A DNA stretch of 42,283 nt from Bacteroidia bacterium (GCA_032111345.1 JAULUW010000009.1:14467-56749), one strand, 5' to 3'. Counted from the stretch's first letter, positions 1 through 10,831 are shown. Notes: generated by a model from the letters alone, not told the origin. Numbers and translations: made by a program.

Positions 1-524
1 TAGCCTGCATTAAGGATAAATTCATCACATACAAAGGGCAAAACTCCCCCGGTGTATGTGCTCTCATCGTAAGGATTACAGGTAATTTGCCCATGGTTGA
101 GTGTAATACTATCATATACCCTAACCTTCAATAATTGTAATTTATTCAGACCTGCAAAGCTGCCCCATCCAGCAGAATTATCTGGACTTACAGTAATGTT
201 ACTTCCCGAGGTGCTTACGACTGTACAGCTTTTATGAAAGCCGGTGAATGAACCGTCTTCCATGCAAATTAATAAGCAATAATCACCTGAATTAAACACA
301 CCTGACGTCGACCCAGGCTTAATGCTAAGGTCATAATTTGGGGTATTAGAGCTTACTAAAGTGATTCAAGTTCGGGTATCATCGAACGTAACAATATGGC
401 CGTCAGCAACTACAAAGTTAGTGCTGCTAGTTGGCCAACCCGTCATTTGGGCTTTTGCATCATACCAATAACTTAAAATAAGTATGGTTAAGATAAAATG
501 TTTGATTTTTTCCTGAGATTTCAT
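1..524 (-). pseudogene. 5' part of a secreted-protein gene paralogous to the N-terminal region of ORF 8543..10831. It is interrupted by an in-frame TGA (366..368) and runs off the window start.
   Basis: Minus-strand ATG at 524..522, then a signal-peptide-like MKSQEKIKHFILTILILSYWYDAKAQ and MTGWPTSSTNFVVADGHIVTFDDTRT-TGA-ITLVSSNTPNYDLSIKPGSTSGVFNSGDYCLLICMEDGSFTG...TYTGGVLPFVCDEFILNAG, all in one frame (hand translation). This is collinear with AQLTGWPSTT...GITAVTANVTDYNLTINTGSLSGTFLVDDFCLLISMEDGNLTG...TYTGGVLAFVCDTFVLNAG of ORF 8543..10831. The TGA aligns with a Gly of the paralog. It is absent from the ORF track because of the stop and the window edge. Confidence 0.6.
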
Positions 525-838: not shown

Positions 839-1001
839 ATCTCGCGACTTTAGTGAGTATTTGGCGAGATTGGATCAAGCCACAAGCTATGCGCTTTTTA
901 ATTTCACCACTTTGGCGAGTATTTGGCGAGATAGAGCCAGGGCGCAAACTATACGCTTTTTGAATCTCGCCAATTTGGCGGGTTATAGGCGAGATTATTT
1001 G
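839..1001. repeat. Imperfect tandem repeat, ~62-63 bp unit, about 2.6 copies. Each unit carries an ATCTCGC(C)...(G)GCGAGAT inverted pair.
   Basis: Units start at about 839, 901 and 964. Shared blocks are tttggcgagtatttggcgagat and (a/c)tatgcgcttttt / ctatacgcttttt. The third unit has a perfect 8-bp inverted repeat, ATCTCGCC-16 nt-GGCGAGAT, and overlaps the stop codon (995..997) of ORF 995..2473. Confidence 0.8.
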
Positions 1002-2473
1002 TCATTTAATTCATATTTAGTGCTAGGGCCTGAACCTACTTTTTTCAATAAACCACTATCAGTCCAATCCTTTAGATAACGTTCAGCCGTTCGTGAAGCT
1101 AATCTGGTAAACTCAACAAACTCTGATTTAGATATAGGTCGTTTTTGTCTGAAAATTTCAAAGTTTTTAACATCTTCAGTACTCAAAACATCTATGCTGT
1201 CTTTCCCAATTATCTCTTTAACGGCTTTTGTTGTTCTTGGAAAAGTCAAGGTTAAGAATGGTTCATTGAACGTATATTTTGGAATAGGTAAACCGTGTTC
1301 TTTGTTCAAGGACTTAAACGTTTTCATTCCAAACCCTTTCTCCTCTACATAATTCATCAAGCTAAAGGCATAGGTTATAATATGGTTTCTGCTCAATGAA
1401 GGAGCTTCAAAAGTATTTAGTTCTTCAAGTGTAATAGCTGGTAGCGGTTTGCCCGGACTCGTTACGACAATTTTATCTTCATCAATTTTGATTTCGCATT
1501 TGGCACCTTCAATTTCATAATCTCTGTGAACTAAAGCGTTAACAATAGCTTCTCGTAAAACTTCAATAGGAAAGTCTGGAATGTCTTTTCTTTTGAAACC
1601 ACTAGTGTCCTTCGAAAGTGGTAATACTTTCTTCAACCATTCTTCAATTTTGTCGGGTAAAAGCACCAAGGCCTGATCAAAATCATTCGGCTCAATTTTA
1701 TTACTGCCATAACTTACATGGGCTTTAAGCACTGCATTTTTGAATTTAGCACGTGGGTTTTTACCAAAAAGCAGAATTCCGTAGCCTGTAGGTACAAACA
1801 TCTTCTTTTCTTTGTCCCAATCCATTGCACCAAAATCAGCTAAGTATTCAAGGAAGTTTTCGTCTGTTGGCTTATAATTCAAATTTGCTTCTTTGATGAA
1901 TTTCTGAAGTGCTTCATCCGAAAACTTGCTACTGTCGTAATTTGCAACAGGGAATTCAAAAGTTGTGCGTAAATCTTCTTCTTGGTCGACTTCTATTCTA
2001 CGTTGTAGTGCTTGTTTCAAAAAGACCATATTTTCTTGCTCAATAATTCGTTGAAACTCTCGGTCAAACATTCTGTATTCCACACCGTGTTTTTTCAAGT
2101 GCCTGATGCCATTGCCTTTGGGGTCTTTATCCTCTATGCCAATAAATACTTTTTTAATACGTGCATTAGTCACTCTTCGGCAACAAGGCACTTTGGGTGG
2201 ATTGCGTTCTACACAGGGTTCAAGGGTGGTGTATAATATACAATCTTCTAAATTTTCTTTGGCTAATTTCCTTTCCAATAAAGTAAATTCAGCGTGATCC
2301 CCTTCACGAAGTTCACCCCTGTAGGCTGTTTCTATTCGACCGTCAGGAAAAAGTAAAACGGCACCTACTTTGGGTGGTACTTTACCATCCTCTCTTGGCT
2401 CATTGACGCTTTTATTCATTACATCAATAGCTAATTGCATCAATTTCGTATGCGTAAATTGTTTATTAATCAT
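995..2473 (-). CDS. Fusion protein: N-terminal RibD/CDA-like zinc deaminase domain plus a C-terminal Schlafen/RecG-like HATPase_c_4 module and a winged HTH.
   Basis: 492-aa ORF. Deaminase motifs: DHAEFTLL and TLEPCVERNPPKVPCC (H-A-E ... PC-x9-CC, the RibD-type spacing). C-terminal REAIVNALVHRDYEIEG...VTSPGKPLP...SRNHIITYAFSLMNYVEEKGFGMKTF is the signature of COG2865-type (AlbA_2/HATPase_c_4) proteins. The tail SKSEFVEFTRLASRTAERYLKDWTDSGLLKKVG looks like a wHTH. Confidence 0.7.
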   Translation of the reverse strand: MINKQFTHTKLMQLAIDVMNKSVNEPREDGKVPPKVGAVLLFPDGRIETAYRGELREGDHAEFTLLERKLAKENLEDCILYTTLEPCVERNPPKVPCCRRVTNARIKKVFIGIEDKDPKGNGIRHLKKHGVEYRMFDREFQRIIEQENMVFLKQALQRRIEVDQEEDLRTTFEFPVANYDSSKFSDEALQKFIKEANLNYKPTDENFLEYLADFGAMDWDKEKKMFVPTGYGILLFGKNPRAKFKNAVLKAHVSYGSNKIEPNDFDQALVLLPDKIEEWLKKVLPLSKDTSGFKRKDIPDFPIEVLREAIVNALVHRDYEIEGAKCEIKIDEDKIVVTSPGKPLPAITLEELNTFEAPSLSRNHIITYAFSLMNYVEEKGFGMKTFKSLNKEHGLPIPKYTFNEPFLTLTFPRTTKAVKEIIGKDSIDVLSTEDVKNFEIFRQKRPISKSEFVEFTRLASRTAERYLKDWTDSGLLKKVGSGPSTKYELNDK

Positions 2474-2783
2474 AAATCTACATTTTGAGTTTCATAATGC
2501 CATTTACATCTAAAATACTTACCAGCAGTTGGACCAAAAGGTTAGTGGTGCCAAGTTAATATTTTGTGTTGTATTAGGTAGCATTTTGGTTTGAAAATTT
2601 ATAGAATGCTTCATTGGATTTTATTCCAATGCTTTCGAGTTTCTGTTTTAAGCTTCCCAAAAGAGTGCGTTTTTAATCTTGGAATACGGCTTGGCTTAGC
2701 AGCGAATTTTTAACACAAACTCCAATCGAATGACTTAACTGGAACCTAACACAAAACTGTCGTACAAAGCACCGAACTTGTCA

Positions 2784-4178
2784 TTAAGGCAAACCGCTTT
2801 GATCCGCTTTTTTCTTATTTTCTTTTGACTCCTTGGCTTCTTTTTTGATTTGGTTGATTTCGCTTAATATGTCTTCAAGTCCTTTTGGTTTAGTTTCGAT
2901 ATAAACTAAATCTTCTCCAAAAATCTCCTTATATACGTTTTTAAATTCATCTGTCTTTCTGAATTGTTTGAATAGTGGCCATTCTCTGTATGCATCTTTA
3001 TTCAAATGTTTGTTTGTCGAGCCAATGTTTTTCATTAACGCTATTGATTTCGGATAATCTTCTCTTAATACTGAAATAGCAAGTTTGAATTGGTCGCTTG
3101 TAGCTGACCAATCGTGATTGTCTAAAACACTCGTACAAGCATTTTTATTATCTGCTAAATAATGAGCTAATGCCTTGTTAATTGTAAAAATGCAAAGCAT
3201 TTCTCGGTCTGTGTGTTTTTTAAGTGTTTCAGTCGCAAAAGAAAGTAGATTTAAAGCTAGTCTATGATGTCCTTTTATAAGTAGTGCGTAACAAACATTG
3301 TTTAAATGTGCATCTGCATCTTCAAGTTTATCAGGCAAGAGTTTTCTCCAAACTACTTGTCCAAGTTTCACTCCTATTTCAAACATCACCATATAGCATT
3401 TATTGAAATATTCAGGATTTGCAATAAGTTTCTGTCCGATTTTCACCTTGTCAATATTCTTAACTTCGTTTTCTTTACAAACGTCTATATATTGTCTTGA
3501 AACAACACCGTTGCAATGAACAAAAAGATTTCTCCTTTCTGTTATCTCAATGAAATCACTGAAACTAGGTAAGTCCTTTCTTAAAAGAATATTAAGTTTT
3601 GTTTCGAGCCATTTGAATTGTTTAAGGTGACTTTCTCTTAATACAGATTCAATTTCTTTTTCAATTAAATACTCTCTCGCTTCTTCCAATGAATTGAACT
3701 TTATGAGTTCAGAAAAGAGAATGTTTTTTTCTGAGTTATTGAGCAACTCCGGTTTAGCTTCAAAAATAGTCCTAATTAGTCCGCCTAGGTATGCATCATA
3801 TTGACTGACAAAAGCTACAACAAAATTGATAGGTAGAAGTCTTGTTGCTAAAGCGGTTGTGTCAACCTTATCATTGAGTTCAATAAAACCTTTAAACTTG
3901 TCAGCGGGAATAAGTAGCTTTGAGGCCTCGTTATCTTCTTCTTTTTCTTTATTTTCAACTAGTCCATTTTCCTTAATGTATTTGTTAACGTGTTTAGCTT
4001 CTTGAACAAGTTTTACGTTCAGCAATCCCATAACTAATGGAACAATATCGGCTTGAGCTTCAATATGTTTTATGAATTTATCTAACTCTTTACCGAAGTC
4101 AGGATAAGCAATTACTGTCTGTTGATCTTGATTTGTTATTTTTTCTTCATTCATATTTTTTGTCAATTTGTCGCTCAA
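2784..4178 (-). CDS. HEPN-domain protein (Rx4H motif) with a helical TPR-like C-terminal region; putative RNase or abortive-infection-type effector.
   Basis: 464-aa ORF. ITERRNLFVHCNGVV contains R-x4-H preceded by long helical segments (VSQYDAYLGGLIRTIF...ESVLRESHLKQFKWLE), as in RiboL-PSP/MAE_28990-like HEPN families. The track start at 4178 is TTG; the first ATG is at 4154. A lysine/glutamate-rich tail follows. Confidence 0.55.
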   Translation of the reverse strand: MSDKLTKNMNEEKITNQDQQTVIAYPDFGKELDKFIKHIEAQADIVPLVMGLLNVKLVQEAKHVNKYIKENGLVENKEKEEDNEASKLLIPADKFKGFIELNDKVDTTALATRLLPINFVVAFVSQYDAYLGGLIRTIFEAKPELLNNSEKNILFSELIKFNSLEEAREYLIEKEIESVLRESHLKQFKWLETKLNILLRKDLPSFSDFIEITERRNLFVHCNGVVSRQYIDVCKENEVKNIDKVKIGQKLIANPEYFNKCYMVMFEIGVKLGQVVWRKLLPDKLEDADAHLNNVCYALLIKGHHRLALNLLSFATETLKKHTDREMLCIFTINKALAHYLADNKNACTSVLDNHDWSATSDQFKLAISVLREDYPKSIALMKNIGSTNKHLNKDAYREWPLFKQFRKTDEFKNVYKEIFGEDLVYIETKPKGLEDILSEINQIKKEAKESKENKKKADQSGLP

Positions 4179-4323
4179 AAAGACCGCTAACGTTGTGCGG
4201 CTCTGACTAGTGCTAAGTTAGGGGGCTGCCCTTGTAGGTCAAATGCCAAAGTTTAGTGTTGTTACTCGTTCAAAGTTCTTGACTTATAAAGCATTAGGCA
4301 AAATACTTTTTGGAAGCAGTATT

Positions 4324-5013
4324 TTACACTTTTTTCATTATGCTTTCTGTATTAGTGTTAAGTCGTGCTTCAAATGAATCCCAATTTTTATACAAACTTG
4401 CAGATGCTTTTTTTACGTTAATTCCGTGTTTTTCGGCTAGGATTTTTTTAATAAGCCAAACACTATTATTTATCTTTTGTGTCGTAGGAAATAAGCTACG
4501 ATTAGGAATGAAATGAGTGTCAATAAAGCCACGATTTAGTTGACGCGCTTCATTGAATATGTTTTGAGCCCAATACGATTCTTCAGTATTGTTGTTAGGT
4601 TTAATTTCTTTTGTTCTATAAAGGTTTGACCAATTAGGAAATTCATCTTCCAAGGTGTCAAATAAAATTCCGTGAACAATAGAAAAGTCAAGGTCACTAT
4701 GTTCTCCAATTTTTTTTCCGTAGTTAGGGTACGGGCTGATTGAAAATCCTATTTTGGCACTACCAATAAGCTTAACTTCTGACGGGGAAATATATAATTT
4801 GTCTGCAATGTACTGAGTGATTTGTTCATGTAATATTGGTTTGTCTTTGAACGCAAACGGAATGTTGCTTACTATAAAATATCTAACTAGCGCTTTTTTT
4901 TCTTTATCACCAATGTTGTTATAGTAATATTTAAAGTCAGCAGGAATTGTGTAAGCGCTACTAATTGCAGATGCTGTCAATGATAATGTTATATATTCTC
5001 GAATGTCAGTCAT
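4324..5013 (-). CDS. Pol-beta superfamily (minimal) nucleotidyltransferase-like protein.
   Basis: 229-aa ORF with an ATG start. GSAKIGFS-x17-SDLDFSIV matches the G-S ... D-x-D pattern of Pol-beta-fold NTases (MNT/SMODS-like). The ATG overlaps the stop of the upstream ORF (ATGACTGA). Confidence 0.5.
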   Translation of the reverse strand: MTDIREYITLSLTASAISSAYTIPADFKYYYNNIGDKEKKALVRYFIVSNIPFAFKDKPILHEQITQYIADKLYISPSEVKLIGSAKIGFSISPYPNYGKKIGEHSDLDFSIVHGILFDTLEDEFPNWSNLYRTKEIKPNNNTEESYWAQNIFNEARQLNRGFIDTHFIPNRSLFPTTQKINNSVWLIKKILAEKHGINVKKASASLYKNWDSFEARLNTNTESIMKKV

Positions 5014-5626
5014 GAATTTTAAAATATTTGCGGTTTATGTGGTTATCGTAAAGAGTTATCAAATGTTGTTTTCTGGTTTCTATTTGTCGTAAACGGTTTT
5101 GATCAAAATAATTTGGTTGAGGATATTTTATTCTTGAAATAATTTCAGCCGCTTTCTCAACTGGTAATTCATCTCTTTCTGCAATGCCAAGTTCTGAATA
5201 AGTTTCAGTTAATCCATTCATTCCCGATCCATAATAGGCAACGTTCAAGTAGATTTTTGGTATTGCTTTTTTGGGAACAATGGAAGAAATTGTTGTAGCA
5301 AGAAAAATTTCTTGAATTTTCCTTTTGAATGTTCTGTCAAATTCATTGGTTAAAACACGATCCAATTGTTGTTGAATTGTGCTTGCACCTTCAACTTTAC
5401 CATAAATTATTCGGTTTCTAATGGCTCTAACAATTGCAATAGGATCAAAACCTATATGGTAATAAAATCTGTGGTCTTCACCCGAAATTAAAATTTTGGA
5501 CAAAATAATAGAGTTGTTTGAATCGCTTATTTTTAGCAATTCATATTCCTCAAGAAGTCTGGCCCGAAGTCGGTCATATTTCTTTTCGTAAATTAGTTTG
5601 GCTATATGTCGTAGTATAAAACCCAA
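5006..5626 (-). CDS. GT51 (peptidoglycan glycosyltransferase / MtgA-like) domain protein lacking an N-terminal membrane anchor.
   Basis: 206-aa ORF with GT51 motifs GEDHRFYYHIGFDP (EDxxFxxHxG), GASTIQQQL (GxSTITQQ) and KRKIQEIFLA (RKxxE). The N-terminus MGFILRHIAKLIYEKKYDRLRARLLEEYE has no hydrophobic helix. TTG start; an in-frame TAG lies 11 codons upstream. Confidence 0.65.
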   Translation of the reverse strand: MGFILRHIAKLIYEKKYDRLRARLLEEYELLKISDSNNSIILSKILISGEDHRFYYHIGFDPIAIVRAIRNRIIYGKVEGASTIQQQLDRVLTNEFDRTFKRKIQEIFLATTISSIVPKKAIPKIYLNVAYYGSGMNGLTETYSELGIAERDELPVEKAAEIISRIKYPQPNYFDQNRLRQIETRKQHLITLYDNHINRKYFKIHD

Positions 5627-6535: not shown

Positions 6536-7306
6536 TTAATTATTTAAAGGAATATGAAACTTAAATTCAAAACCATTACCCTTGAGGTTCGAATTTGCAA
6601 CGGCCCCTTTTAACATCTCAATTCTTGCTTTGATGGTATGTGTTCCAAGGCCCTCAATAAAGGAATTTGCATCTATGCCAATACCGTCGTCTGTGTACTT
6701 GAATTCAATTTTTTCTGGGAATGGTTTAATGATTAACTGAACTTTTTGTGCTTTTGCATGCTTTAACGTATTATTGAGTAATTCTTGAAAAATCCGGAAT
6801 AGATTTTTGGTTTCTTCCGGGCCTAATTCTACATAATCATAAAGATATTGAATCTTTAATGATGACGTTTGTTCTATTTGTAAAATTAACTCATGCAAAC
6901 CATCGAATAAACCCAATCGTAACAAAGTTGCCGGATAGAGCATGGTAGATAAATCGGAACATTTTTCGGAAGCCTTATTAATCAGCGTTTCTAATGCTTC
7001 GAAATTATCATTGCCTTTACCCAATAAGGCTGTGTTCGTTTTTAACCGTTGTACTTGCATCCAGGCCAAGGTTAAAACCTGACCTAGATCATCGTGTAGT
7101 AGACTGCCAATTTTTATCCGCTCTTCTTCAATAGCGTTGAGTTGAATTTGATTGATCGTTTTTTGAAAAGCAAGCTCCTTCTTCTCCATATCTAATATGG
7201 TCTTGTTTCTTTCATATGCAGCTTTTAATATGAAAAATCCGCTAATAGTTGTTGTAAGTGCAACTATTACAATGGCAACTATAGCGGTATTAGTTACCGA
7301 TTCCAT
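6536..7306 (-). CDS. Sensor histidine kinase, HisKA_3 (NarX/DesK-like) type.
   Basis: One N-terminal TM segment, H-box LHDDLGQVL, N-box ELLNNTLKHA, G-boxes DDGIGI and GLGTHTI. A 3-nt gap separates it from the response regulator gene. Confidence 0.85.
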   Translation of the reverse strand: MESVTNTAIVAIVIVALTTTISGFFILKAAYERNKTILDMEKKELAFQKTINQIQLNAIEEERIKIGSLLHDDLGQVLTLAWMQVQRLKTNTALLGKGNDNFEALETLINKASEKCSDLSTMLYPATLLRLGLFDGLHELILQIEQTSSLKIQYLYDYVELGPEETKNLFRIFQELLNNTLKHAKAQKVQLIIKPFPEKIEFKYTDDGIGIDANSFIEGLGTHTIKARIEMLKGAVANSNLKGNGFEFKFHIPLNN

Positions 7307-7944
7307 AATAAACCAATAAAAGTGAAAGCATAAAACAAAATGAATTTCAGTGTCAGATAAATATTTAAAAAACGATCGTGTTGCATTATGTCAATATATA
7401 AATACCTTGCCATGCTGTGATTGATAAAATCGAGTGTGGATATTATGAAAATTGCCAATACAAAACAAATTTTACTCACAGGATACTTTGGTATGGTAAA
7501 TATTTTTAACAAAACATGTATAGAGAAAAGCATACCTAAAATACTGATTAAAAAATTTACATTTTCATATTCTAAGGCATTCAAAAAACCATAATCAGAA
7601 TATTTTTCTTGGGATGCAGCAGGATAATCAAACATAAAAAGTGAAGCAGCATACAATGCAACCCCAACTCCGCTAATCAACGATACGGCTTTCTCGATTG
7701 AATTTGTTGTGATCAATTGCTTCAGTATAAAAATAACAATGAACAACTCAATTCCATTTACGACTACTAACAACTCTAAATTTGACGTTAACAGCGTATC
7801 ATCGATCCAATTACACAACAAATTCAGCATCCCCCAAAACGAGAAAACTAAATACCAACGTTCATGGGTAGCAGTATACTTCCGCCATCCTAATAATATT
7901 AGGATGGCAAAAGCTGTTGTTTTGACAATCCAAAAATCAATCAA
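7294..7944 (-). CDS. Polytopic membrane protein (about six hydrophobic helices), possible input/sensor partner of the kinase.
   Basis: The 216-aa ORF is hydrophobic throughout. It overlaps the kinase start by 13 nt, and its TTG start overlaps the upstream stop (TTGA). Confidence 0.5.
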   Translation of the reverse strand: MIDFWIVKTTAFAILILLGWRKYTATHERWYLVFSFWGMLNLLCNWIDDTLLTSNLELLVVVNGIELFIVIFILKQLITTNSIEKAVSLISGVGVALYAASLFMFDYPAASQEKYSDYGFLNALEYENVNFLISILGMLFSIHVLLKIFTIPKYPVSKICFVLAIFIISTLDFINHSMARYLYIDIMQHDRFLNIYLTLKFILFYAFTFIGLLWNR

Positions 7945-8249
7945 CTATTTAATGGGTTGCTACTTGAACAATGTGAAGGACAAGGTTTAGCAAATTCTGC
8001 TAGCAGCCCTTGGTACAAATCATTTTCATCTGCTTTTGCTCCACAAAGTACCAATGTTAAATTTCCATTGTTGATAGCGAAATAATATTTGAGTCCGACA
8101 CATTCTGCTTGATTTAAAATTGCCATTACAGCATCCTTACTGAAGAATCCCCCGATTTTAGAATTAATGTTAGCGTCTCTGTACGCTTTAGTCATAACAG
8201 AAGCATCAACTAGTGTTATGGAATGGTTTTCATTTGGATTAAAAGACAT
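7941..8249 (-). CDS. Small protein of unknown function; first gene of the two-component operon.
   Basis: 102-aa ORF with an ATG start, no signal peptide and a Cys-containing C-terminus (KPCPSHCSSS). Translationally coupled to the next gene. Confidence 0.45.
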   Translation of the reverse strand: MSFNPNENHSITLVDASVMTKAYRDANINSKIGGFFSKDAVMAILNQAECVGLKYYFAINNGNLTLVLCGAKADENDLYQGLLAEFAKPCPSHCSSSNPLNS

Positions 8250-8386
8250 ATCGCAAAGAAATGGGTTAAAAAAAGAAAAACCAATATCATAAATACTACC
8301 GTTCCATTATCAAAAATGCCCCTTGTGATGGATAAAAGTGAGTTAGAGTATTTGTAAAAGTCAATTTAAAAGGTTAATAAAATAAT

Positions 8387-8412
8387 TATTCAATACCAAA
8401 AATGGTATTGAA
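8387..8412. promoter_or_regulatory. Perfect 11-bp inverted repeat (ATTCAATACCA-aaaa-TGGTATTGAAT) in the divergent intergenic region; candidate operator.
   Basis: Arms at 8387..8397 and 8402..8412. The half-site recurs upstream of the paralogous pseudogene (attcaatacca at 579..589; ccaaaatggtatt at 677..689). Confidence 0.5.
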
Positions 8413-8542
8413 TTGTCCAAATCAAACAATTTAATTTGAATGGATTAGAAAGTCCTAATACTAATGGATTTACAAGAGGAAATCATAGAATTAAATACGT
8501 AAAACAAATATAAAAAAATCCAAAACATACAAATATTAAATA

Positions 8543-10831
8543 ATGAAAAAAATAAATTTAATTATTGCCTTGCTATTAACAATGGCTTATTGCAACATCG
8601 CTAGTGCTCAGCTTACAGGTTGGCCTAGTACAACAAACAAAAAAACCGTAGCTAACGGCGAAATTGTTTACCTCGACTCTCATCGAGTCGGAATTACTGC
8701 CGTAACTGCAAACGTTACCGATTACAATTTAACAATAAATACGGGCTCATTATCTGGAACATTTCTAGTAGATGATTTCTGTTTGTTGATTTCAATGGAG
8801 GATGGTAATTTAACCGGACTTCATAAAAGCTGTGTTCTTAAAACCATTAATAATAATATAATTACTGTAACGCCCAACAATTTATCAGATTGGAATTTAT
8901 TCACAACTTGTTCTAAATTGCAACTTATAAAGGTTCCAGTTTATGATTCCCTCACCCTAAATCACGGACAAATAACCTGCCATCCATACAATGAAACAAC
9001 CTACACAGGAGGAGTTCTTGCTTTCGTATGTGATACGTTTGTACTCAATGCTGGATATATTAATGCAACGGGGCAAGGTATTAGTCCTTACACTATGAAC
9101 TTGGGTATTCCTGGACTTGGAGGCGCCGGTTCGCAAACCTATTATAGCAACAGTGGAGGCCTTCCACAAACTAATACACCTCCTTGCTACACTCCAGATT
9201 CAATTATTTTGCCTTTAGTGTATACACTTAACGGAACAGAAGGTGATAGCAGTCTCAATAATGGTGGTATAGGAACTAGTTGTAATTATTCAACGGTAAT
9301 ATCAAATAGCACAGCTAATAATTCGTATCCTAAAATAATTAATATGGGGACTCCTGGTGTTCTAGGGCCTTTTACTAGTTCGTCCACTGGTGGTAGTGGC
9401 GGAGGTCATGGTGGAAAGGGTCGTAATTTGAATAATAGCTTTATCGACGGTAACCCTGGAGAATTCGGTGCCAATGGTGAGGATCCTCAAAAAACAAATT
9501 CAAGAGGTGGTGGCATAATTATTGCAAAAATAAAAACGCTATACATTGATAATCAGTTGTTATTGTCCGGGACTGCACGGTTCATCAGTAATGGAGGTAA
9601 TGGAACGAATGGTGGTCAAGGAGGTTTCGGAGGAAATGGAGGTGCAGGAGGCATAGGTGAAGAGGGTTTTTGTACTGGAGATACTATATTTTTTTCTGGT
9701 GCCAAAGGCGGTTATGGTGAGTCGGGAGATCCTGGAAATGGCGGTGATGGAACCAATGGGGGCCAGTCTGGCTCAATTTGGTATTTATCAGACCAACAAT
9801 ACCCTGTTATAGGTGTTAATAGTGGTGCACCCATTTATTATAATGCCCCATTCGAACAACTATTTAATGTCAACGGTGGAAAAGGCGGTAAAGGAGGGGT
9901 GCCAGGAATTTCAGAAATAATAAATCACAACAGAACAGAAGCCTTTGATACTACTGGTTGCAATCCTTTAGAATGGTGTGTAAGTTCTGATACGTCCACC
10001 AGTTGCGATTGCGATTCGGTTTTTGCGTCGTTTCAGGGGAAAGATGAGTTAATATATAATACCAGTATAACACCCAATTATGTAATTTTTGGCAATTCAA
10101 CTTTTAGTTGTGCTTTTGATTCGATTTGGGGAGTTCTTAAATTCATTAAAGGAACAAAAGAATTTTATTGCCCGATGTCTAACCCTGAACAATTCAAAGA
10201 AATTTTAAAATTGATAGGGATTGCTCGTTTAAGCCCATACCAAAATAATCCAGCTGCCAACGTTGAAGCAGAAATGTTGAATGGAAAACTGAGATTTCAA
10301 GTAAAAAGCACTAAATGGCCCATTGCGGAATATGATTTTGAAAGTAATACATTAACCGACTTAGACGATCCGGCAAAGCAAAGTGTAGTGGAAACTAGTT
10401 GTTTGTATAGTTCTGCGGCGTTTGGCGGTGCACAATTCATGAAAGTGGGAAGCGCAGGAAATGATGGGAATGATTACCCATATTCTGGAAGTAAAAGTAT
10501 AGGAACTATACCTTTTGTCGATAGTGCAAATGTGATTTATTATTCACCCGTAACTGCTATCGACGAAGAAATGCAGTCCTCTCATTTGAAATCCAATGAA
10601 ATAAAAATCTACCCGAATCCAGCTGCCAGCACAGAAATACAAGTTGAAAGCGAAATTGTTTTAACTGAAATCTGTATCCTAGACCATTTGGGAAAAATAA
10701 TGATACAACTTCAACCCAATGCCAAGCAACTAACAATCCCAATTCAAAGTCTTCCAGATGCGATGTATACCATTCAGTTAAAAACATTAAATGAAACAAT
10801 TACCAAAAAAATCGTTATATTGAAAAATTAA
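8543..10831 (+). CDS. Secreted glycine-rich protein with a T9SS type A C-terminal sorting domain.
   Basis: Signal peptide MKKINLIIALLLTMAYCNIASAQ. Gly-rich tracts (GGSGGGHGGKG, GGNGTNGGQGGFGGNGGAGGIG, GNGGDGTNGGQSG, GGKGGKGG). C-terminal IKIYPNPAAS...YTIQLKTLNETITKKIVILKN is typical of Por/T9SS CTDs. Confidence 0.8.
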   Translation: MKKINLIIALLLTMAYCNIASAQLTGWPSTTNKKTVANGEIVYLDSHRVGITAVTANVTDYNLTINTGSLSGTFLVDDFCLLISMEDGNLTGLHKSCVLKTINNNIITVTPNNLSDWNLFTTCSKLQLIKVPVYDSLTLNHGQITCHPYNETTYTGGVLAFVCDTFVLNAGYINATGQGISPYTMNLGIPGLGGAGSQTYYSNSGGLPQTNTPPCYTPDSIILPLVYTLNGTEGDSSLNNGGIGTSCNYSTVISNSTANNSYPKIINMGTPGVLGPFTSSSTGGSGGGHGGKGRNLNNSFIDGNPGEFGANGEDPQKTNSRGGGIIIAKIKTLYIDNQLLLSGTARFISNGGNGTNGGQGGFGGNGGAGGIGEEGFCTGDTIFFSGAKGGYGESGDPGNGGDGTNGGQSGSIWYLSDQQYPVIGVNSGAPIYYNAPFEQLFNVNGGKGGKGGVPGISEIINHNRTEAFDTTGCNPLEWCVSSDTSTSCDCDSVFASFQGKDELIYNTSITPNYVIFGNSTFSCAFDSIWGVLKFIKGTKEFYCPMSNPEQFKEILKLIGIARLSPYQNNPAANVEAEMLNGKLRFQVKSTKWPIAEYDFESNTLTDLDDPAKQSVVETSCLYSSAAFGGAQFMKVGSAGNDGNDYPYSGSKSIGTIPFVDSANVIYYSPVTAIDEEMQSSHLKSNEIKIYPNPAASTEIQVESEIVLTEICILDHLGKIMIQLQPNAKQLTIPIQSLPDAMYTIQLKTLNETITKKIVILKN

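Follow-up and report, generated by a model that had tools for sequence, protein, structure and literature searches.

A GT51-like and nucleotidyltransferase-like gene pair in a four-gene islet of a Bacteroidia bacterium that probably combines three independent accessory units

The four genes and the company they keep

We analyzed a stretch of 42,283 nucleotides from a Bacteroidia bacterium (GCA_032111345.1, JAULUW010000009.1:14467-56749), hereafter the window, and in particular an islet of four co-oriented minus-strand open reading frames (ORFs) at positions 995-5626. A first-pass annotation had named these genes, in the direction of transcription, as a GT51-like transglycosylase, a nucleotidyltransferase (NTase), a HEPN protein and a deaminase fusion, and had taken them for a small defense or addiction islet that was possibly one composite system. 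The four ORFs are present as described, as confirmed by the ORF listing, but their relatives in other genomes suggest a different reading. We consider it probable, at about 0.6, that the islet is not one system but three independent accessory units that have come to lie together in this lineage only. Unit 1 consists of the GT51-like gene (gene A) and the NTase-like gene (gene B, termed NT), unit 2 is the HEPN-like gene, and unit 3 is the deaminase fusion, in which a deaminase is joined to a HATPase_c_4 domain and a winged helix-turn-helix (wHTH). The features of the islet are listed below from its upstream end, with protein lengths in amino acids (aa).

5006-5626, minus strand: gene A of unit 1, GT51-like, 206 aa, TTG start
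5006-5013, minus strand: overlap between the GT51 stop and the NT start, 8 nt, ATGACTGA, read from the sequence
4324-5013, minus strand: gene B of unit 1, NTase-like (NT), 229 aa
4155-4323, minus strand: spacer between units 1 and 2, 169 bp, with a weak hairpin and then a T-run (CCGC...GCGG TCTTTTT)
2784-4178, minus strand: HEPN-like gene of unit 2 if read from a TTG (464 aa); 2784-4154 from the likely ATG start (456 aa)
2474-2783, minus strand: spacer between units 2 and 3, 310 bp
995-2473, minus strand: deaminase-HATPase_c_4-wHTH fusion gene of unit 3, 492 aa

The spacing between the genes depends in one place on the choice of start codon. Homologs and public gene calls place the start of the HEPN-like gene at the ATG at 4154, and the gap between NT and the HEPN-like gene is therefore 169 bp and not the 145 bp given previously, a figure that holds for the TTG at 4178. 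The 310-bp gap at 2474-2783 had been given correctly, and no Rfam family matched this spacer.

A pattern search seeded on NT peptides only, and covering one genome per species (185,579 species), yielded 33 NT loci, with which the window proteins were compared by tblastn. In 31 of the 32 loci that can be assessed, NT is directly preceded by the GT51-like gene; the upstream side of NT in L032 is cut by a contig end. Locus L016 is the only one with a different order, a divergent GT51-like gene lying just downstream of NT, and the two genes are thus adjacent in 32/32 assessable loci. None of the 33 loci has a HEPN-like gene beside the GT51-NT pair, and none encodes a homolog of the deaminase fusion; the only further deaminase-domain match, in L001, is weak and partial (35% identity over 86 residues, some 6 kb away from the pair) and does not represent a homolog of the fusion protein. 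When the ORFs of the NT loci were clustered, the NT and GT51 clusters alone were recurrent. The HEPN-like gene was followed in 83 loci, 80 of them from a metagenome scan with a HEPN-like profile and three more besides, and these contain neither NT, GT51, deaminase or two-component genes nor any recurrent partner gene. One HEPN-like homolog is 85% identical to that of the window and yet has different neighbors (L040). Only contigs with 98-100% identity to the window, at least four of them, were found to have all four genes in this order, and each of the three units also occurs alone in other genomes.

These distributions bear directly on the proposal that all four genes form one composite defense system, in which NT and the HEPN-like protein would be an enlarged MntA/HepT-type pair to which the GT51-like protein and the deaminase have been added. 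The genes are indeed co-oriented and adjacent, an NTase-like gene is upstream of a gene encoding an Rx4H motif, and the arrangement is kept in the near-identical contigs. The first-pass annotation had seen in this the canonical order of MNT-HEPN pairs, and had rightly remarked that both proteins (229 and 456 aa) are larger than classical MNT (~100-140 aa) and HEPN proteins. However, no NT locus contains a HEPN-like or deaminase gene, no HEPN-like locus contains NT, GT51 or deaminase genes, the HEPN-like homolog of L040 keeps other company, NT overlaps the GT51-like gene but stands 169 bp from the HEPN-like start, and the three units are each found on their own elsewhere. The comparative data thus contradict the composite system, which we regard as very improbable. 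The NTase-then-HEPN order is coincidental, a chance juxtaposition, and neither the MNT-HEPN pair nor the four-gene set recurs at any NT or HEPN-like locus: the subset that travels together is GT51 plus NT only, and the other two genes are independent. Co-orientation plus a suggestive gene order can mislead. A point that weighs against three separate units is that read-through transcription across all four genes may be conceivable.

The GT51-like and NTase-like pair

The transglycosylase label given to gene A is well founded. The Pfam family Transgly (PF00912) matches the protein with an E value of 3e-29 and 102 bits against a cut-off of 27, and the best sequence match in the PDB is the glycosyltransferase (GT) domain of Aquifex PBP1a (E 1.4e-17, ~125 residues aligned), while the equivalog level of NCBIfam is not reached (79.7 versus 182.65 for mono_pep_trsgly and 101.6 versus 508.75 for a PBP1 family). 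An alignment of 30 homologs contains four near-invariant motifs, which are ED.R..H.GFD with the catalytic Glu49 of the window protein, EGASTI.QQL, RK..E with the second catalytic Glu104, and YL..AY.G, the last accompanied by R.KYP. Given this conservation, selection seems to maintain the domain as an enzyme. A hydrophobic membrane-spanning segment is missing from 28 of the 30 homologs, in which the maximum 19-residue Kyte-Doolittle hydropathy is ~1.0, and the two exceptions come from L016 and L030, which are both atypical loci. The window protein itself has no transmembrane anchor, and the N-terminus of its clade (ILRHIAKLIYE) is predicted to be a strongly amphipathic helix with a hydrophobic moment of 0.78. 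The divergent GT51-like protein of L016 (1570-2331) is 253 aa long with 37% identity, and it has a hydrophobic N-terminal segment.

The partner protein NT has an N-terminal helical region followed by a GS-x21-DLD...GFID core. Across 139 representatives that are less than 50% identical to one another, residues G84, S85, G89, D107 and D109 are invariant and D165 is kept in 91%. The AlphaFold2 (AF2) model (predicted local distance difference test score, pLDDT, of 92) has the order alpha-beta(GS)-alpha-beta(DxD)...beta(D), as in NTases of the pol-beta type. Hence, the NTase label stands as far as the invariant GS...DxD...D motifs are concerned, but it is not backed by a significant profile or fold match, and several observations weigh against it. 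The GS-to-DxD spacing is 21 residues compared with the usual 9-13; the best Foldseek match in the PDB has an E value of 0.9 (for a whole-chain query with large helical additions), with GLD-2, AadA, TUT4 and pol lambda surfacing only at E values of 5-8; and PF01909 is touched by a single fusion member, over the GS..DxD region, at E 0.01 and 16.7 bits against a cut-off of 21. NT has no match in Pfam, NCBIfam or PADLOC, no relative in the PDB by sequence and profile searches, and no Foldseek match in BFVD, and its sole match in PHROGs is a family of unknown function. When 32 NT members were scanned singly at E<=10, no NTase family was matched, including DUF1814/AbiEii. A deep profile search of 1.84 billion representatives recovered 1,046 NT relatives, and known NTase families are not reached among the best 150 of these, all of which have E<1e-36. 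We therefore use the term NTase-like, which the motifs and the predicted model make reasonable but unproven. The family is a sizable one (about 1,000 representatives in public data after clustering at 50% identity), and it lacks a Pfam family, a name and any paper in the literature searched.

The two genes are coupled at several levels, NT being translationally coupled to gene A. The overlap seen in the window recurs, with a length of 4-17 nt, in most of the related loci, and the divergence of GT51 and that of NT are correlated across loci (75-78% vs 75-76%, ~58% vs ~50%, and ~46% vs ~44%). Among the matches listed, at least five clusters are natural GT51-NT fusions of 430-634 aa in which an N-terminal Transgly domain precedes a C-terminal NT, and in a remote representative (P0504) the Transgly gene overlaps the NT start. 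That the genes are inherited together and, in several lineages, have been joined into one polypeptide shows that the two proteins act together. As judged from their genes, these loci show GT51 and NT to be an obligate functional pair inherited together across at least five phyla. Searches of the literature for GT51 or Transgly in toxin-antitoxin, defense or NTase contexts returned nothing relevant within the library covered, and the pair is a new and previously undescribed gene association whose NT half is without a Pfam family. Two of the remote members have additional parts. The fusion protein P0439 (L123, 1430-3334), which at 634 aa begins with a hydrophobic helix and then a very basic stretch, has an extra C-terminal region of ~180 aa without a Pfam match, and in a remote GT51-NT locus (L124, 1553-3715) a gene for a UvrD-like helicase begins 2 nt past the NT stop and may be a lineage-specific third component.

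The 33 loci belong to Bacteroidota, Campylobacterota, Acidobacteriota, Desulfobacterota and Methylobacter. The locus labeled as a metagenome-assembled genome (MAG) of Janthinobacterium lividum (L007) has several flanking gene clusters in common with a Sphingobacteriaceae MAG (L006) and is probably mis-binned, so that a proteobacterial range should not rest on it. A tblastn search of plasmids located a copy of the pair on pM830MA of Aliarcobacter cryaerophilus, where it is beside IS21 and then DUF4365, PLD-like, TIR and DUF4917 genes. Across the 33 loci the genomic contexts vary, and there is no conserved biosynthetic neighborhood.

Where the proteins would act is suggested by several features taken together. 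In the fusion P0439, the hydrophobic helix followed by the basic stretch would, by the positive-inside rule, leave both domains in the cytoplasm, and a cytoplasmic location is also supported by the requirement of an NTase for cytoplasmic nucleoside triphosphates (NTPs). From these two considerations, together with the missing anchor and the amphipathic helix of the window clade, we infer that the GT51-NT pair is placed in the cytoplasm. GT51 enzymes are regarded as universally extracytoplasmic, membrane-anchored wall builders and as antibiotic targets.

We propose, tentatively and at somewhat less than even odds, that unit 1 is a toxin or regulator module directed at lipid II that has not yet been flipped. 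The GT51 domain would work at the cytoplasmic face of the membrane, where it might polymerize or sequester lipid II, or present either lipid II or itself to the NTase for nucleotidylylation, and the NTase-like partner would control or complete the GT51 reaction. MntA controls HepT by nucleotidylylation, and antibiotic NTases nucleotidylylate sugar hydroxyls; by the same token, NT might modify the GT51 protein in the manner of MntA, or a hydroxyl of the substrate sugar in the manner of the antibiotic enzymes. Such an abortive-infection or addiction module would halt cell-wall synthesis. The cassette is compact, patchy, horizontally spread and independent of its context, which is why it may be a toxin/regulator or abortive-infection-type module, and cytoplasmic immune effectors that attack unflipped lipid II have been proposed in a preprint (10.1101/2025.01.14.632903). 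A more specific form of the proposal is that the pair represents a new class of conflict module in which a cytoplasm-facing GT51 polymerizes lipid II prematurely or, together with the NTase, caps it with a nucleotide. The undecaprenyl carrier would be trapped either way and wall synthesis would collapse, but we consider this version unlikely. If a mechanism of this type is correct, the protein would be the first GT51 enzyme to serve as a weapon or regulator inside the cell. With its catalytic motifs kept and its anchor lost, the family would reveal either a new way in which lipid II is manipulated from within by cells or their mobile elements, or a new glycan-modifying chemistry.

A toxin or regulator role also has much to contend with. 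Most genes around the pair in the 33 loci have housekeeping functions and PADLOC matches are few and scattered, so that enrichment in defense islands is not demonstrated; the pair was not found in the viral contigs or phage genomes that were searched; and unit 1 matches no model of PADLOC-DB v2.0.0 and no named family. A fused protein is also at least as easily explained by two consecutive reactions of a pathway as by a toxin with its antitoxin. Another explanation is that the pair are accessory enzymes of the cell envelope that carry out consecutive steps, for example the assembly or trimming of a glycan on an undecaprenyl-linked precursor, followed by its nucleotidylylation or by phospho-transfer onto it, reactions known from sugar-modifying enzymes of the NTase fold. 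The catalytic residues of both partners are kept, natural fusions are typical of enzymes of one pathway, and the few neighbors that are related to the wall (NamZ and LysM), like the housekeeping contexts and the missing PADLOC match, are in line with such a function. On the other hand, the spread is extremely patchy for an envelope pathway (33 loci, one genome per species, among 185,579 species), a biosynthetic neighborhood is not conserved, the pair has neither the membrane anchor nor the secretion signal needed for acting on the wall, and the plasmid copy is found among TIR, PLD and DUF4365 genes beside IS21. We consider envelope enzymes to be a rather unlikely explanation.

The roles could also be reversed, with NT as the toxin, modifying tRNA in the manner of MenT or AbiEii, and the GT51-like protein as a repurposed antitoxin or sensor. 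NTase toxins do exist, MenT being one and AbiEii, the subject of a preprint, another; the GS and DxD residues of NT are fully conserved (with D165 at 91%), and a compact two-gene cassette with overlapping genes would suit such a system. The strict conservation of the GT51 catalytic motifs, however, is not expected of an antitoxin that merely binds, and NT has no detectable similarity to DUF1814/AbiEii or to any other NTase family. Reversed roles are in our opinion improbable, and we retain the tentative proposal of a module that acts on unflipped lipid II. Two other candidates were rejected. A decoy or resistance pair for moenomycin-type antibiotics would involve a cytoplasmic decoy that cannot meet a drug acting in the periplasm, and a cyclic-oligonucleotide-based antiphage signaling system (CBASS) is not consistent with NT, which is smaller than a CD-NTase should be and gives no SMODS match, or with a GT51 protein without a recognized nucleotide-sensor domain.

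Units 2 and 3 and the setting of the islet

The HEPN-like protein of unit 2 consists of an N-terminal coiled coil, a helical core that contains ERRNLFVH, and a C-terminal helical repeat resembling tetratricopeptide repeats (TPR). The ERRNLFVH sequence (R216-N217-x3-H221, an Rx4-6H motif) is invariant in 31 sequences, there are more than 844 homologs of ~450 aa each, and the AF2 model is all-helical with a pLDDT of 85. The label HEPN given to the protein earlier thus has an invariant RNxxxH motif in its favor but neither a profile match above threshold nor a fold match. No match was found in Pfam, NCBIfam, PADLOC or PHROGs, and no relative in the PDB by sequence and profile searches. PF18730 (HEPN_Cthe2314) was touched weakly, at E 0.0067, by two of 31 members scanned singly at E<=10, and it was not recovered in a second scan of ten divergent members. 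What counts against the label is that Foldseek returned only weak TPR-like matches to the C-terminal half and no HEPN structure. HEPN-like is, from the motif and the predicted model, a reasonable but unproven designation.

Several HEPN-like loci are in or beside genes for the type I restriction-modification (R-M) proteins HsdM, HsdS and HsdR, as identified from sequence, and copies in or beside type IIG R-M operons are also seen. The copy on a Crinalium plasmid adjoins hsdS and hsdR, and that on a Nostoc plasmid shares an operon with genes for a TaqI-like methyltransferase and a helicase, while other copies are located among housekeeping genes. A survey of HEPN families found that they are frequently embedded in R-M operons and fused to TPRs (PMC3710099). 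In view of the invariant RNxxxH motif and these genomic contexts, the protein is probably a latent RNase that is activated by stress or phage and backs up restriction. The Nostoc plasmid locus (pANSO36A; L129, 1120-9553) comprises four overlapping genes, encoding the HEPN-like protein, the TaqI-like methyltransferase of 1,111 aa, a helicase-related protein of 1,100 aa and a protein of 183 aa, and together they may form a larger R-M-like system with the HEPN-like protein as one component.

The deaminase label of unit 3 was likewise borne out. A zinc deaminase of the RibD/CDA type at residues ~8-135 is followed by a middle region, HATPase_c_4 at 323-411 and a C-terminal winged helix. Pfam matches dCMP_cyt_deam_1 (PF00383) at residues 8-112 (E 9e-13, 48.5 bits versus a cut-off of 25) and HATPase_c_4 (E 2e-16), with a winged-helix signal at the C-terminus, and the zinc-binding motifs HAEFTLL and EPCVERNPPKVPCC (PC...PCC) are present in the translation of the deaminase. 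The NCBIfam match is of the RibD type, the PDB matches are RibD deaminase domains (E 2e-9) and 3lmm (E 4.5e-7), and a PHROG labeled DNA helicase matches the C-terminal part (E 9e-36). The fusion belongs to a large family that is unusually well conserved. The best 120 homologs, among them proteins of Belliella, Algoriphagus, Arenibacter and Brumimicrobium, are 71-90% identical, and this high identity across genera suggests recent horizontal spread.

In all five of the other genomes examined, the fusion gene is in an R-M or defense island. In three of them, Belliella baltica and two other Bacteroidota (L120, L122 and L127), it is between hsdS and hsdR and overlaps the end of hsdS by 4 nt; given the overlap and the adjoining hsdR, the gene is a fixed insert of the type I R-M operon. 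In the other two it lies between a type IIG enzyme and McrBC (L121) and beside DarT/Macro, AbiH and PLD genes (L126). The position between hsdS and hsdR suggests that the fusion probably serves as a second-line effector or regulator linked to R-M, which would deaminate nucleotides or the bases of nucleic acids. Neither unit 2 nor unit 3 has a name, and both belong to known kinds of accessory gene associated with R-M. Hence, the view of the islet as one of defense or addiction is upheld for units 2 and 3 by their R-M and defense contexts elsewhere, and for unit 1, with one copy in a plasmid defense island, it is tentative.

The islet is flanked, as had been described, by a two-component operon and a decayed cargo gene of the type IX secretion system (T9SS). 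The operon encodes a regulator with Response_reg and GerE domains and a HATPase_c histidine kinase. The cargo gene (window 3-524, minus strand) has an in-frame stop after codon 52 and is broken into ORFs of 52, 326 and 350 aa in L034, whereas it is intact, as a single ORF of at least 696 aa (7258-9345), in the sister contig L036. The DNA of that contig is 98.8% identical, and the loss of the gene in the window is therefore very recent. A paralog of the cargo gene that is 60% identical is present at 8543-10831 of the window. The spacer between the start of the T9SS gene and the 3' end of the deaminase gene contains a 62-nt tandem repeat (839-995, 2.5 copies, 76% matches) that terminates at the deaminase stop codon, and two spurious plus-strand ORFs (682-963 and 861-1079) run through it.

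The AT-rich character previously ascribed to the islet is modest. Its GC content is 34.2% compared with 38.4% for the window, which places it in the lowest 11% of windows of the same size, and the adjoining two-component operon has just as low a value (34.0%). A search for flanking repeats, direct or inverted, that could betray an insertion was negative. Scans for sigma-70 promoters and for terminators did not rise above shuffled background, and the hairpin and T-run of the 4155-4323 spacer were not called by the terminator scan. The Bacteroidota -7 box TAnnTTTG, when scanned for, occurred once, 186 nt upstream of the GT51-like gene, and was absent from the other two spacers.

Comparison with known systems

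When checked against the named systems of PADLOC-DB v2.0.0, the GT51-like, NT and HEPN-like proteins have no match, and the deaminase fusion has only partial, domain-level matches to proteins associated with prokaryotic Argonautes (pAgo) and a marginal dCTPase match (E 0.0098), so that none of the four proteins counts as a component of a named system. Each unit nevertheless has recognizable counterparts. The R-M-embedded groups of HEPN proteins include AbiD/F, AbiU2, AbiJ, LA2681 and Cthe_2314 (Anantharaman et al., 2013; PMC3710099). Unit 2 has in common with them R-N-x3-H at the end of a helix, an all-helical core, a TPR-like extension as in the LA2681-type fusions, and a repeated location in type I or IIG R-M operons, and it differs from them in having no Pfam HEPN match above threshold and no HEPN match with Foldseek.

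For unit 3, the nearest parallels are of two types. COG2865-type "RecG-like" proteins with HATPase_c_4 and a helix-turn-helix occur in defense islands, usually with AlbA_2 as the N-terminal domain, and deaminase-based defense genes such as those for dCTP deaminase and DcdV are also known. The fusion has the HATPase_c_4 and winged helix of the former, a zinc deaminase like the latter, and a placement in R-M and defense islands, but in place of AlbA_2 it is a RibD-like deaminase that is fused N-terminally.

MntA-HepT, a type VII toxin-antitoxin system, resembles the islet in that an NTase-like gene is upstream of an Rx4H-motif gene, and the nucleotidylylation of a partner by its NTase offers a possible analogy for the control of GT51 by NT. 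The adjacency of NT and the HEPN-like gene, by contrast, is not conserved, the real partner of NT being GT51, and neither NT (229 aa) nor the HEPN-like protein (456 aa) matches the NTP_transf_2 or HEPN models of Pfam. Zeta/PezT and the fused EzeT are UDP-GlcNAc kinases that poison peptidoglycan synthesis. Although their folds and chemistry are unrelated to those of the GT51-NT pair, they provide a conceptual precedent for a cytoplasmic toxin that corrupts a peptidoglycan precursor, and the fused EzeT parallels the GT51-NT fusions.

Finally, gene A can be set against canonical GT51 enzymes, namely MtgA/SgtB and the GT domains of class A penicillin-binding proteins (PBPs). The two catalytic glutamates, motifs 1-4 and, approximately, motif 5 are common to all of them. 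The differences are that an N-terminal transmembrane anchor or signal peptide is absent in 28 of the 30 homologs of gene A, that its distribution is accessory, patchy and horizontally spread and not universal, and that in every case it comes with an NTase-like protein, either coupled to it or in a fusion.

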